Virus record (IMG/VR): IMGVR_UViG_3300047548_001271
Span: 1 to 64,000 of that record
Source of the DNA: a virus
Direction: 5' to 3' (one strand)
DNA: 64,000 nucleotides
The notes beneath the pieces are model-generated. The model was not told the origin of the DNA. It searched no databases and saw only the letters and a list, made by a program, of their open reading frames with translations. Below, one piece after another: positions 125 through 6,937 of the stretch (the stretch's first letter is position 1; the number at the start of each line of letters is the position of its first letter). Both the position numbers and the translations under genes were made by a program.

Positions 125-180
125 TTGATTAGTCGGAGTTGTAATATAGAAGCGGCCCTTAAGGGCCGTCTTGCCGCAGC
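125..180. repeat. Inter-cassette element copy 1
   Basis: TTGA at 125; palindrome 150-171 (GCGGCCCTTAAGGGCCGT core); tail TGCCGCAGC. Confidence 0.8.
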
Positions 181-189
181 ACTTTTAAG

Positions 190-263
190 TACCCCGATCA
201 GGACTCGAACCTGAAACCTACTACTTAGAAGGTAGTCACTCTATCCAATTGAGTTATCGGGGC
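190..263 (-). tRNA. tRNA-Arg (TCT)
   Basis: GCCCCGA acceptor; ACTAC-CTTCTAA-GTAGT anticodon arm; GGTTCGAGTCC T-arm; CCA not encoded. Confidence 0.95.
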
Positions 264-267
264 ATTA

Positions 268-321
268 TGGAGCGGGGCCGGACAGTGTCCTGTCGCCGAT
301 ATGCACCGGCTCAAACCCCGC
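268..321 (-). ncRNA. 54-nt D-armless tRNA-like RNA ending U-CCA, with GCA in the anticodon-like loop
   Basis: GCGGGGT-TTGA-GCCGG(TGCATA)TCGGC-GACAG(GACA)CTGTC-CG-GCCCCGC-T-CCA; fills the gap between two tRNAs. Confidence 0.6.
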
Positions 322-324
322 GAA

Positions 325-396
325 CTGGGATAGCAGGACTCGAACCTGCAACCTAACGGTTAACAGCCGTTTGCTCTACCATTGAGCTACATCCCA
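325..396 (-). tRNA. tRNA-Asn (GTT)
   Basis: TGGGATG acceptor; ACGG-CTGTTAA-CCGT anticodon arm; GGTTCGAGTCC T-arm. Confidence 0.95.
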
Positions 397-419
397 AGAA
401 AACCGGTTATTTCATTATA

Positions 420-671
420 TCAGCAGTTGATATCAGCGTCACTTACAAAGTATTTTTTCTTATTCACGAGAACGTAAAGTGATCCCACGTTTGAATGCTG
501 GATACAATACACTCGCCTCCACTTACCACTGACTTTTGCCATGTAGGAGGTTTGGATTTTACTTCCATAACCATCCACCCCTTGCCCCGGTATTCGTCCA
601 TTGGACAAGGCTTTGACTTGCGAACGTCTGAATTGTACACCAGAAAACGATTTTGTCAAATAGGAAATCAC
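420..671 (-). CDS. Small phage hypothetical protein
   Basis: 83 aa, packed against the upstream ORF; GYGSKI...WRRVY...SN-GS-Y pattern typical of small phage proteins. Confidence 0.7.
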   Translation of the reverse strand: MISYLTKSFSGVQFRRSQVKALSNGRIPGQGVDGYGSKIQTSYMAKVSGKWRRVYCIQHSNVGSLYVLVNKKKYFVSDADINC

Positions 672-672
672 G

Positions 673-948
673 TTATTCTCCGAGGATTTTGCGGAAAGAT
701 TGTTTCAAATCGTCCAAATCTGAGCAATTGTCTGACTCAAAAAGAATCATATCAAAAGCGTCGTGTGGGTAAAAATTAACGTAATCAGCAACGTAGAGGT
801 TAATTAAACAGCAAACACTTGTTGCCGTGGAACCCATCAAATCATCGACTTGTCGCTTGTCTTGTGGGTTAAAAAAATTCTCCCGCTTAACACGGCAAGC
901 GACAAAAACGAGATTCGCCAAAACGTCGATCAGTTCGTCTCTGGACAT
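673..948 (-). CDS. Hypothetical protein
   Basis: 91 aa, overlaps the upstream ORF, operon-like packing. Confidence 0.65.
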   Translation of the reverse strand: MSRDELIDVLANLVFVACRVKRENFFNPQDKRQVDDLMGSTATSVCCLINLYVADYVNFYPHDAFDMILFESDNCSDLDDLKQSFRKILGE

Positions 949-1232
949 ACAGGCTCCAACTTACAGATTGAAAAATCAGAATAGGTGATTACATCCTGTC
1001 TCGCATTACAAGAAAGCTTGTTTGTCTCATATTCAATATAAGGAAACATTTCATCTTCGATCATTCCTTGTTTGATTTTACGGAGAAGATCTATCGCCTC
1101 CTCCATAGTTTGGACTGGTCCCTTAATAAAGGAATTCTCTTTAATAACTTCGCCAACAGAGTTGGAAAAGTGCCACTTGTCTACAAACCAATCTTTTCCT
1201 TTGTAAGAACATTCTTCGAGAACAATAAACAT
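930..1232 (-). CDS. Hypothetical protein
   Basis: 100 aa, GGAG RBS, directly downstream of promoter 1272-1299. Confidence 0.7.
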   Translation of the reverse strand: MFIVLEECSYKGKDWFVDKWHFSNSVGEVIKENSFIKGPVQTMEEAIDLLRKIKQGMIEDEMFPYIEYETNKLSCNARQDVITYSDFSICKLEPVCPETN

Positions 1233-1271
1233 CTCAGTCTCTCCGTTAGTTGTTGTCCGTTCGTTTTCCCC

Positions 1272-1299
1272 ATTATATAATCCGACACGCTATAGTCAA
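1272..1299 (-). promoter_or_regulatory. sigma70-type early promoter
   Basis: TTGACT-16-TATAAT. Confidence 0.75.
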
Positions 1300-1318
1300 A
1301 CACTTTTCAAGAGTTTTT

Positions 1319-1374
1319 TTGACGGGTTGATTAGTCTGTGATTGGGCGGCGTTTAGCCGCCGCCGCGTTGCGGC
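1319..1374. repeat. Inter-cassette element copy 2
   Basis: TTGA at 1319 and 1327; GGCGGCG-TTTAGC-CGCCGCC; tail CGTTGCGGC. Confidence 0.8.
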
Positions 1375-1375
1375 G

Positions 1376-1402
1376 AATAAACGCGGGGCTCGTGAGAGCC
1401 CC
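1376..1402 (-). terminator. Putative intrinsic terminator
   Basis: GGGGCTC-TCAC-GAGCCCC followed by GCGTTTATT, just after the stop at 1409. Confidence 0.55.
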
Positions 1403-1408
1403 TTTAAT

Positions 1409-1639
1409 TCATTTTATTCCGAAAATTCTCATAGCTGCTTCAAAATCTTCTACTGTTTCAATTTTAAATGAGCAATTTCCAGAATCGTATTTGCTATCAA
1501 AGCAGATATCAATTTCTATCACGTCTATGTCATTAGATGACGACGCCATGACATCGAGCCTAAAAAATCTACTTATCTCATGAGAAAGATAAGTCTGTCC
1601 AAATCTTGAAACCATATATTCTTTAGTTAGTTTTGTCAT
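1409..1639 (-). CDS. Hypothetical protein (76 aa, start revised to 1639)
   Basis: ATGA overlap with the stop of the upstream gene; GGAG RBS. Confidence 0.65.
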   Translation of the reverse strand: MTKLTKEYMVSRFGQTYLSHEISRFFRLDVMASSSNDIDVIEIDICFDSKYDSGNCSFKIETVEDFEAAMRIFGIK

Positions 1640-5125: not shown

Positions 5126-5151
5126 AGTATCCTCCTGAGATAGTTAAGAAT

Positions 5152-5337
5152 CTACCAAGGCAATTCGGCGTCCCTGTAAATTCGATGTTCTTCGAAGTCA
5201 TCCCAGTCAGGTTCTTCTGATGGGAATTCCACCTCCTGCTGCTGGAATTCCAGCAATGCAGCCCGCTCCTCCTCATAACGGGAGGCGTGATCGTCGGAAT
5301 GTTCGTGTGTGAGAAAATCGTCTAAAGACTTCGGCAT
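5152..5337 (-). CDS. Small, very acidic protein
   Basis: 61 aa with 20 D/E and 5 K/R; AGGAG RBS. Confidence 0.7.
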   Translation of the reverse strand: MPKSLDDFLTHEHSDDHASRYEEERAALLEFQQQEVEFPSEEPDWDDFEEHRIYRDAELPW

Positions 5338-5381
5338 TTTAGTCTCTCCTGTTTAAACCCACCAACGTCTGGTGTGCGTTT

Positions 5382-5409
5382 ATTGTACAATCCAGAATTC
5401 TATTGTCAA
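5382..5409 (-). promoter_or_regulatory. sigma70-type early promoter
   Basis: TTGACA-16-TACAAT. Confidence 0.7.
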
Positions 5410-5437
5410 TTAAAAAACGCTAGAAAATTTCAACAAA

Positions 5438-5493
5438 TCGAAGGGTCGAAGATGTACAAGTTGGGCGGGCCACAAGGCCCGCCCCGCCGCAGC
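5438..5493. repeat. Inter-cassette element copy 7
   Basis: TCGA at 5438 and 5446; GGGCGGGCC-ACAA-GGCCCGCCC; tail CGCCGCAGC. Confidence 0.85.
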
Positions 5494-5548
5494 GAACCTT
5501 GTGAAGATCCCATCGGGGGCGGATTTCTCCGCCCCCTAGGGTGTCGCA

Positions 5549-5983
5549 TCAGATTACCCTTGCGGATTTCCTGCCTTTTTTCAGGGCGTTCCGTTCTGGT
5601 GGGTTTTCCACCATAGGGAGAAATTCGATTTCCCCACTCGCTTCCACTTGGGAAGCATAGACTTCCACCCTACGGGCAATTTCCGCTTCATGGGAAACGG
5701 GTTTTTCTTTTTTCTTTTTTCCACCCAGAAGCTTTCTCAGAGACGAGAAAGTCCTGCCGCCATCCCTCTTGTTGTGGTATTCTGGTTTGAGAATGGAATT
5801 ATCGAACCAAACAGAATCTTCCATTTCCTCCCATAGGGGGTCATCCTCATACCCCCCTACAACTTTTCTCACCTGGTCGGAAATACCCAGAGACTCACAT
5901 CGCTGGCAAAAAGTCTCAAAAGTGAGACCTGGGTTGGCCTGTGCAAATTCGATTTCCGCCTGGATTTTAGCATCGACTGACAT
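5549..5983 (-). CDS. Hypothetical protein
   Basis: 144 aa, GGGAG RBS, followed by hairpin 5515-5536. Confidence 0.7.
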   Translation of the reverse strand: MSVDAKIQAEIEFAQANPGLTFETFCQRCESLGISDQVRKVVGGYEDDPLWEEMEDSVWFDNSILKPEYHNKRDGGRTFSSLRKLLGGKKKKEKPVSHEAEIARRVEVYASQVEASGEIEFLPMVENPPERNALKKGRKSARVI

Positions 5984-6051
5984 TTTTCTCTCCCATGAGA
6001 ATCGGGCTTTTCGTCCCCGGGAACCCCCCGGGTGACTTTTCGCCCTGCGGA

Positions 6052-6080
6052 ATGATATCCGGAACGAAAAACAATTGCAA
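6052..6080 (-). promoter_or_regulatory. Possible sigma70-type promoter
   Basis: TTGCAA-17-TATCAT. Confidence 0.45.
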
Positions 6081-6155
6081 GCTCAAAAGCTTAAAATTTT
6101 TAGAATTTTTAAATAGTGTGGCGTGATATACCACCCTAGGTAATTACGAGAAACA

Positions 6156-6210
6156 TCGATGGGTAGTATGGTCTACGATGGGCGGCCCAGCAGGGCCGTC
6201 CTGCGGCGGC
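6156..6210. repeat. Inter-cassette element copy 8
   Basis: TCGA at 6156; GGGCGGCCC-AGCA-GGGCCGTCC; tail TGCGGCGGC. Confidence 0.8.
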
Positions 6211-6264
6211 TTATATTCAATGAGGGTTGGGGGAGGGTTTCCCCTCCCCGCCCATGGGTGGTTT

Positions 6265-6495
6265 TCAGATCAGGGGTGCCGCCACAGCATTCCTGTAATA
6301 GCGGCCAGTTGTAGAAGACCGGCTAGTGTTAGCGTAAAAGGAACGCCAAGAGACATAGGATTCGGTGTGACGATTATACCAAAAACAACAATTATACGTG
6401 GAATCCCACGCATCGATCAACAATACGCTAGCCGTAGCGTGGAACATATCGCCACCTTCAGCGGACGGATAATGAAAATCAATAAACATAACCAT
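6265..6495 (-). CDS. Hypothetical protein
   Basis: 76 aa, GGGAG RBS, followed by hairpin 6230-6249. Confidence 0.65.
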   Translation of the reverse strand: MVMFIDFHYPSAEGGDMFHATASVLLIDAWDSTYNCCFWYNRHTESYVSWRSFYANTSRSSTTGRYYRNAVAAPLI

Positions 6496-6567
6496 TTTTT
6501 CTCTCCCGTGAGAACTGTCCTACCATACCCCTAGGAACCCCCTAGGCGGTATTCTCGGAACGCCTAC

Positions 6568-6595
6568 AGTTTAACCAATTCAATCGGATTGTAAA
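6568..6595 (-). promoter_or_regulatory. Possible sigma70-type promoter
   Basis: TTTACA-16-TAAACT. Confidence 0.45.
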
Positions 6596-6641
6596 GTATA
6601 TTCCGACAATTTTCTCAAATAGCAGACAAATAATTAATGCA

Positions 6642-6697
6642 TCGATAGGGAGAATGACCTAATTGTGGGCGGCTTTGAACAGCCGCCCAGTCTCGCC
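6642..6697. repeat. Inter-cassette element copy 9
   Basis: TCGA at 6642; GGGCGGCT-TTGAAC-AGCCGCCC; degenerate tail AGTCTCGCC. Confidence 0.7.
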
Positions 6698-6881
6698 TAT
6701 GTATATAACAATCCTAATATCTTATCCTTATCCTATTTTCCGTCTTTATCGTTATTAGCGTTGTTGTCGCTGTTATCGTTACAGCCAACACAATTTAATT
6801 GTATCAAAAACTTTAGCAAAATCCAGAGAATTCCACAGAATTTTCAAAAAAAGTGGAATTTCATATCACCCTAATAAGGCA

Positions 6882-6937
6882 TCGATATGCTTATATGTCG
6901 GTAATTGGGCGTCCGAGTACGTCCGCCGCGTTGCAGC
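6882..6937. repeat. Inter-cassette element copy 10 (degenerate stem)
   Basis: TCGA at 6882; GGGCGTCCG-AGTA-CGTCCGCCG; tail CGTTGCAGC. Confidence 0.65.

Follow-up and report, generated by a model that had tools for sequence, protein, structure and literature searches.

Covarying hairpin elements between the early gene cassettes of a freshwater phage are candidate regulatory boundaries

The early gene array and its repeated hairpin element

The 64-kb window analysed here (positions 1 to 64,000 of IMG/VR record IMGVR_UViG_3300047548_001271) is part of the 157-kb contig Ga0451681_0000017 of an uncultured freshwater phage from JGI sample 3300043399. From position 1 to about 8700, the window carries an early array of leftward small genes and tRNAs. 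No Pfam or PHROG function could be assigned to the open reading frames (ORFs) of the array, and its units are separated by ten copies (E1 to E10, Table 1) of the folded element that is the subject of this study. The G+C content is 42-47% in the array and 31-37% in most of the remainder, where two 2-kb stretches reach 41-42%. The same contig was also available in reversed orientation as locus L001, which extends 9 kb past the left window edge (L001 position = 11233 minus window position). Two extra copies of the element, E11 and E12, were found in this left flank at L001 positions 14846-14889 and 16526-16569.

Read on the gene strand, the element consists of a 9-mer (GMYGCNNCR), a 22-nt GC palindrome and a TCRA box (TYGA on the plus strand). 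All 12 copies align without any gap across 44 columns, which means that the palindrome span and the register of the 9-mer are fixed regardless of loop size. Loops are variable and measure 4-6 nt, stems are 6-10 bp long, the palindrome always spans 22 nt, and the 9-mer lies 15 nt from the loop centre in 11 of the 12 copies. The stem base is near-constant (RGCGG...CCGCY) and includes an invariant C-G pair at columns 19/34. Nine copies have a TCRA box that starts 21-23 nt past the palindrome; in E4 and E5 this distance is 19 nt, and in E12 the box is absent within 75 nt. Additional TCRA boxes recur at 8-nt steps. The spacer between palindrome and box cannot be aligned in sequence, but its length is kept. 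Fold energies range from -16 to -28 kcal/mol in 11 copies, while the degenerate hairpin of E10 reaches -12 kcal/mol. No U-tract was found in any copy. Only E1 has five T in an 8-nt window after the stem, which is a lax rule for a T-tail, and in the other elements, the 9 nt that follow the stem contain 1-4 T, as read by eye. These observations agree with the original prediction, made from the letters of the window alone, which had described ten palindromes with a 22-bp span and a 4-6 nt centre, a TYGA box 22-26 bp away and no U-tract. All ten palindromes were re-found at the same coordinates, and the fixed span and the box distance hold in the larger alignment. A plain intrinsic terminator was rejected as an explanation, as the U-tract is lacking and a terminator-like hairpin already lies immediately ahead of several copies.

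Several lines of evidence indicate that the fold is under selection. None of 500 shuffles of the 12-copy alignment reached the observed level of covariation, and 89.8% of the stem cells are paired versus 71% in the shuffles. Changes on both sides are found in six of the nine stem pairs. Among the inner three pairs, at least five types exist and complementarity is preserved, as the prediction had proposed when it described compensating stem changes. When the partner column is shifted by 1-3 positions, pairing falls to 29-51%. With a covariance model built from the 12 copies, their scores are 39-49 bits, and every match is on the minus (gene) strand, co-oriented with the genes. Reverse strands of the same palindromes aside, the next-best match in the window scores 12 bits, and the model detected no further element in the other 57 kb. 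A degenerate pattern of 9-mer and palindrome matches eight of the ten window copies, with zero matches expected in shuffles. Non-Watson-Crick stem pairs are equally divided between three G.U and three A.C pairs on the gene strand, without strand bias.

RNAalifold predicted a single helix only and no larger conserved fold. Pairing of the 9-mer with either palindrome arm was considered and rejected because it is inconsistent between copies, and a mini-hairpin within the 9-mer would comprise only 2-3 bp. An Rfam search up to E = 1 returned two tRNAs and nothing over the elements, in line with the earlier view that this is not a described element. The selected pairing, together with the constant stem base, the 5' flank and the kept spacer length, suggests a folded nucleic acid that is recognised by a protein.

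Position relative to promoters and counterparts in related phages

The element forms the promoter-distal part of a repeated intergenic control module of about 190 bp. In the direction of transcription, this module comprises a stop codon, usually a terminator, the 9-mer and palindrome, the TCRA boxes, an A-tract, a promoter, a leader and a ribosome site. This is the location given by the prediction, between the end of one unit and the promoter of the next. The promoters follow the pattern TTGACA-16/17-TATAAT, and seven in the window match 11-12 of the 12 positions. A-tracts are found at about -40 to -60, in the position of an UP element, and the leader carries a strong ribosome site. The terminator hairpin and the 9-mer are separated by 7-10 nt, or by 19-21 nt before E7 and E8. 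A separate hairpin precedes five to seven copies, and four of these hairpins have a T-rich tail (those before E2, where it is weak, E3, E4 and E5). E1 and E11 lie directly behind tRNA genes with no other hairpin. E12 and E9 likewise have no other hairpin behind the upstream unit, and E9 closes an ORF-free stretch of about 125 nt. E10, the first element of the array, lies about 95 nt past a strong terminator.

Measured from the palindrome centre, the -35 box begins 54.5, 55.5, 55.5 or 56.5 bp away in one group of copies, 64.5, 65.5 or 65.5 bp in another, and 77.5 bp in one copy. The two spacing classes, 54.5-56.5 bp (four copies) and 64.5-65.5 bp (three copies), are one helical turn apart. Internal promoters in short gaps (e.g. 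3122-3149) occur without the element, and divergent antisense promoters were limited to a single weak case at 1253-1281. Other known signals were considered and dropped, including a promoter for a phage sigma factor and a hairpin lying in a promoter spacer. A nut-like boxA/boxB site was rejected because it would have to lie on the other side of the promoter, a C-rich, rut-like tract because it is not consistent between copies, and look-alikes of Chi or DNA-uptake sequences because they occur in one or two copies only.

Table 1. Coordinates of elements, promoters, gene-proximal hairpins and strain differences. Distances at promoters are from the palindrome centre to the -35 box.
Feature	Position	Strand	Description
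E1	125-180	-	palindrome 150-171, 9-mer 172-180; 43.1 bits; directly after tRNA-Arg, no other terminator
E2	1319-1374	-	palindrome 1344-1365, 9-mer 1366-1374; 47.7 bits
E3	2409-2473	-	palindrome 2443-2464; four TCRA boxes at 7-8 nt steps; 49.2 bits
E4	3652-3704	-	palindrome 3674-3695; three TCRA boxes 8 nt apart; 42.7 bits
E5	4376-4428	-	palindrome 4398-4419; paralogue of E4; 47.4 bits
E6	4964-5019	-	palindrome 4989-5010; 41.2 bits
E7	5438-5493	-	palindrome 5463-5484; 45.0 bits
E8	6156-6210	-	palindrome 6180-6201; ATCGATG box; 39.3 bits; without consensus promoter at usual distance
E9	6642-6697	-	palindrome 6667-6688; ATCGATG box; 41.1 bits
E10	6882-6937	-	degenerate palindrome 6907-6928; ATCGATG box; 40.3 bits
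Promoter of E1	55-82	-	12/12 positions; run of about 30 A ahead of it
Promoter of E2	1272-1299	-	11/12; 55.5 bp
Promoter of E3	2361-2388	-	12/12; 65.5 bp
Promoter of E4	3603-3630	-	12/12; 54.5 bp
Promoter of E5	4326-4353	-	11/12; 55.5 bp
Promoter of E6	4915-4943	-	11/12; 56.5 bp
Promoter of E7	5382-5409	-	11/12; 64.5 bp
Gene-proximal terminator hairpin before E2	1385-1402	-	10 nt ahead of the 9-mer
Comparable first hairpins	2485-2510, 3712-3745, 4436-4468, 5027-5049, ~5510-5541, ~6229-6249	-	
Strain difference	1404-1647		absent; one ORF lost between preceding gene and terminator
Strain difference	5975-6492		absent; ORF, its terminator, E8 and promoter removed; exchange between two leader copies at start codons
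Strain difference	6265-6490		replaced by 278 nt; ORF swap exactly from start to stop
Strain difference	6050-6152		replaced by 106 nt; swap starts 1 nt after the ATCGATG box of E8
Strain difference	upstream of E4 module		genes replaced; homology resumes at stop codon, 58 nt before the 9-mer
Strain differences (three swaps)	left of window		all within operons

Within the searches made, the element family is limited to this phage and near-identical strains, and cultured phages yielded nothing similar. An IMG/VR scan with the promoter pattern returned 24 unrelated contigs that contained no elements, and IMG/VR scans with the exact E4/E5 hairpin pattern or with the DUF7227 protein gave no match. DUF7227 homologues (51-59% identity), including six more contexts, had no match to the covariance model. 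A neighbouring 264-aa protein identified three relatives in IMG/VR; their contigs stop before the array and had no match to the covariance model either. The matches listed by a metagenome scan with an E1/E8/E12-type pattern were GC-rich contigs with one match each, and in 80 loci taken from them the covariance model scored at most 30 bits.

Related phages have other repeats in the place of the element. On the 173-kb contig of locus L030, which has the same gene order, an unrelated repeat, about 91 nt long and present nine times, occupies this place upstream of early promoters (5354-13892). In the L030 repeat, a GC-rich core is flanked by two dyad units (AAGTC...GACTT with a central GCNGCA), which are 53 bp apart. 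Their pairing is poor, with 29% non-Watson-Crick pairs and no strand bias, so that they look like paired duplex binding sites. Loci L029 (3436-7317) and L035 (~1440-1505) have a third family, whose repeat unit measures about 72 nt and combines a terminator with a second hairpin. The latter has a constant CCCGGCA.GTGTGGCGGG core and an outer stem that covaries. In three copies of this repeat, a gene follows within 60-75 nt without a sigma-70-type promoter. In L030, the distance from hairpin centre to -35 box measures 51-54 bp for six copies and 41-42 bp for another two, and the promoter-proximal hairpin lies 55.5 and 57 bp from the -35 box in L029 and 56 bp in L035. Three unrelated sequences thus share one position at about -90 from the start site, and the side spacing classes are about one helical turn off this shared position.

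Some further observations concern the array itself. Between the TCRA box of E1 and its promoter lies a run of about 30 T (97-126; A on the gene strand); its length in the JGI record of this contig is one base different from that in the window. From E10 to E9 (6700-6880, minus strand), no ORF is present; this stretch contains repeated AACGATAA/GATAAG motifs and an extended -10-like promoter, has the E9 hairpin at its end, and may therefore encode a small RNA. Another strain shows about 98% conservation of the region around E9 (6491-6736). In the promoter-proximal part of the array, two near-identical G5/C5 hairpins (7552-7576 and 7812-7836, minus strand) are each followed by ATTTTTCAAG and a ribosome site, and a related G/C hairpin at about 7228-7249 (minus strand) has a ribosome site directly after it. 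These hairpins between 7228 and 7836 constitute a second, distinct repeated terminator-leader module.

Strain differences and genome context

To compare strains, we used contigs from other freshwater samples that share 88-97% identity with the window and in which seven elements are comparable. The elements differ at 7 positions in 297 nt (2.4%), versus 6.6% for ORFs and 5.8% for other intergenic DNA. Only two strain differences touch stem pairs, one each in E7 and E11. The change in E7 converts C to T in the loop-adjacent pair, which leaves a G.U on the gene strand, and lies 3 nt from a contig end; the change in E11 affects the outermost pair.

Gene content differs between strains at at least eight places (Table 1), where ORF swaps adjoin conserved modules. 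The original prediction had listed a site of cassette capture or shuffling, with breakpoints expected at the element, among its readings. None of the eight differences has a breakpoint inside the 44-nt element core, and in seven of them the breakpoints are at start or stop codons, in repeated leaders or within operons. E11 has a mosaic make-up: it follows E3, the hairpin of which is near-identical, in the hairpin and the next 9 nt, and E1 in its flanks and promoter, so the modules recombine among themselves. In two independent assemblies, related strains have contig ends in or beside palindromes (2463-2472, 3665, 4406 and 5455-5479). We did not retain these ends as a signal of rearrangement, as they probably reflect an effect of GC hairpins on assembly or coverage.

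Outside the array, the window encodes a tape measure protein of 3259 aa, the length of which suggests that the phage probably has a long non-contractile tail, and a Clp-type protease. An intein-laden ATPase carries the PHROGs label of large terminase, and its N-terminal 355 aa match helicase/primase and DarB-like phage genes (tblastn). Directly adjoining the early array, a rightward block of genes opens with a 169-aa ORF (9247-9756, plus strand) that matches Sigma70_r2 at 27.3 bits (cutoff 24) and sigma-factor PHROGs, and probably represents a late sigma factor of the phage itself. Two nucleases were found in the window, an HNH gene (8696-9118) and a 159-aa ORF (11970-12449, plus strand) with a borderline match to ERCC4 (XPF/Mus81-type; 23.9 bits versus a cutoff of 24). 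The latter, a candidate for a branch-resolving nuclease, adjoins the genes for the Clp protease and the terminase. Where transcription diverges (8440-10000), the G+C content drops steeply, and three relatives have contigs that start about 1.5 kb upstream of their homologue of gene 9743-10537. This divergence point is consistent with a genome end or packaging site. A blastn search against 50,697 phage records returned only tRNA matches; the 690-aa protein at 18468-20540, taken as the likely portal, was unmatched in the same records, and no match to T4-type genomes was obtained.

A regulatory or a recombinational element

The overall architecture is a published one, which the original prediction had missed. 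Promoter-early stem-loop (PeSL) cassettes have been described in the T4-type phages RB49/phi1, PST/T4 and nt-1/KVP40 (Arbiol et al. 2010, PMC2839356; Comeau et al. 2014, PMC4122927). In these cassettes, a stem-loop immediately precedes an AT-rich region and a sigma-70 promoter, and the cassettes are found near indels, in variable regions with ORFan genes (PMC2839356, PMC4122927). Both designs combine a stem-loop, an AT-rich stretch, a sigma-70-type early promoter, a ribosome site and a start codon, and both repeat this module among small ORFan genes in a variable region. Here, the stem-loop lies upstream of the promoter with its centre 54.5-65.5 bp before the -35 box in seven copies, and seven window promoters are strong and sigma-70-like with an AT-rich upstream region. 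As with PeSLs, close strains differ by ORF insertions, deletions and replacements beside the modules (here eight, at 88-97% identity), and the G/C-rich stems differ between lineages. In contrast to PeSLs, a separate terminator hairpin usually comes first here, and the conserved element is an extra component between this terminator and the promoter. The element also differs by its 9-mer at the 5' foot, fixed 22-nt span, TCRA box at fixed spacing and lack of a T-run, and this phage is not T4-like (no T4-type match; 3259-aa tape measure). Most likely, the array represents self-contained early expression cassettes of the PeSL type, in which the first hairpin corresponds to the PeSL stem-loop, while the conserved element is an additional hairpin without described counterpart. 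By its layout, this element may work like a PeSL, but it falls outside the described set.

Other known systems resemble the element in part. Like attC sites, it occurs as one folded, co-oriented copy per cassette in which structure is kept above sequence. Unlike attC sites, the 12-copy alignment has perfect stems and no R''/L''-L'/R' organisation, GTTRRRY core or extrahelical bases. The ends of IS200/IS605 elements and REP elements consist of a hairpin with a short conserved foot motif and a tetranucleotide at fixed distance, and are processed by HUH enzymes; IS608-type ends in particular combine a conserved foot motif, a hairpin with variable stem, a fixed spacer and a tetranucleotide. Our element shares the hairpin, the foot motif and the tetranucleotide at fixed distance, but there are no pairs of left and right ends, and it is confined to a single promoter array. 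Activators can bind at comparable sites upstream of strong promoters; examples are p4 of phi29, at about -82 of the A3 promoter, and Fis at the sites of rrn P1. Like these, the element is a dyad about 80-100 bp upstream of the start, just past the UP element, with spacing classes one turn apart. Those sites are read as duplex sequence, whereas here the stems covary, which indicates that the fold is selected.

Our best explanation is that the elements are regulatory rather than recombinational, namely boundary or upstream promoter elements acting at the DNA level, although we put this at somewhat less than an even chance. Action on DNA is slightly favoured over action in read-through RNA because the phased promoter distance is fixed across lineages, because the element lacks a U-tract and lies behind terminators, and because G.U and A.C mismatches are equal in number. 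The idea of an activator platform, one of the options in the original prediction, fits this fixed, phased distance. Several points weigh against a DNA-level role. E8, E9, E10 and E12 keep the 9-mer and hairpin without a consensus promoter at the fixed distance (E8-E10 retain the TCGA box at the usual spacing), so a strict link of the element to one promoter type does not hold. With 9 bp, the arms are short for a cruciform to be extruded from double-stranded DNA, the binding factor remains putative, and the constant distance could result from the hairpin abutting a promoter upstream region that takes up about 45 nt. The element is also the sole hairpin after the upstream unit in about five units (the tRNA units before E1 and E11, E12 and the E9 stretch), which would suit a role at RNA 3' ends, all 12 copies are co-oriented with transcription, and RNA hairpins have the higher prior at such a position.

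These last points belong to an RNA-level alternative, which is somewhat less probable. The hairpin would then form in read-through or unterminated transcripts and, together with the 9-mer, bind a factor or block exonucleases, serving as a back-up attenuator, 3'-end protector or processing mark that parts neighbouring early units. The stable and covarying stems are in keeping with this, as is the lack of any other hairpin behind two tRNA units, the unit of E12 and the non-coding stretch at E9. PeSL stem-loops, moreover, terminate transcription in reporter assays (PMC2839356). Still, little RNA would arrive at most copies, which lie directly behind another hairpin (T-tailed in four cases), and none has a U-tract. 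G.U pairs are not in excess over A.C pairs, whereas the neighbouring terminator at 2485-2510 has two G.U pairs, and a fixed, phased promoter distance in several lineages is unnecessary for an RNA 3' structure. It is improbable that the palindrome is an ordinary duplex operator for a dimeric repressor or activator, with its hairpin potential as a by-product of palindrome-templated mutation. The near-constant outer half-sites RGCGG and CCGCY would suit such an operator, and so would the equivalent repeat in L030, which pairs poorly and resembles a dyad-symmetric binding site. Covarying stems are, however, not expected if a protein reads half-sites only, and the inner three pairs vary among at least five types while staying complementary, as does the outer stem of the L029/L035 repeat, which covaries in every variant.

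The shuffling site of the original prediction now appears very unlikely. If the element were a site of site-specific recombination acting as a folded single strand (attC-like or IS200/IS605/REP-like), a recombinase would bind the hairpin, guided by the 9-mer foot, cut at the TCRA box, and excise or capture cassettes. The layout resembles IS608-type ends, as a resemblance only, gene content varies between strains, and one swap (6050-6152) starts 1 nt after the E8 box. This is the only one of eight breakpoints near the tetranucleotide; the others do not coincide with the element, and the 5975-6492 deletion takes E8 whole through a leader-leader exchange. Every cassette carries its own promoter, unlike the promoterless cassettes of integrons, which adjoin an integrase gene with attI. 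As the prediction had remarked, no dedicated recombinase is visible: a family scan of about 40 ORFs in the window and left flank detected no integrase, HUH or transposase families, and the HNH and ERCC4-like nucleases are not recombinases of the required kind. We consider it slightly less likely still that the 9-mer, hairpin and TCRA box form a single-strand recombination site of an unseen phage enzyme, encoded in the roughly 84 kb of the contig beyond the scanned part, that excises and inserts promoter-bearing cassettes. At the bottom of our ranking is a role as hairpin promoter for an injected polymerase, as priming site or as stop signal for stepwise DNA entry, the last of which the original prediction had also listed. 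In phage N4, small DNA hairpins serve as early promoters, and the array studied here may adjoin a genome end, as the contigs of relatives end about 1.5 kb short of the neighbouring gene. The N4-type hairpin promoter has a 5-7 bp stem and a 3-nt purine loop and is used by a virion RNA polymerase. In our array, loops are variable and measure 4-6 nt, strong host-type promoters already serve the genes, no such polymerase is encoded in the window, where the 3259-aa protein is the tape measure, and twelve stop signals would make little sense for stepwise entry.

Returning to the regulatory boundary element, we propose that host RNA polymerase would transcribe the leftward early array, and that the palindrome, together with the conserved 5' flank, the stem base and the TCRA box, would be the binding site of a putative phage or host factor. 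The element, centred near -90, would mark the upstream edge of each early promoter and, when bound, might tune the use of this promoter or insulate it from the upstream unit. The active form could be an extruded DNA hairpin or a palindrome read on both strands. We infer the binding of the factor, the strand or molecule that folds and the effect on transcription from the conserved anatomy, covariation and spacing. The modules may double as homology patches, with ordinary homologous recombination there and in the leaders swapping, deleting and inserting ORFs.

Early regions of phages have the fastest turnover of host-takeover and anti-defence genes, and only for T4-type phages are the wiring and exchange of these genes understood in detail. 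The array described here extends the PeSL cassette design to an unrelated group of freshwater phages and adds a second, lineage-specific hairpin. It is also a cautionary case, as covarying hairpins between cassettes are not necessarily recombination sites; if the recombination-site reading were true, it would imply an integron-like or HUH-like cassette system inside a lytic phage. The second hairpin has a wholly different sequence in related phages and keeps its position about 55 bp before the -35 box. This makes it a candidate for a new upstream promoter or insulator element with a putative binding factor.

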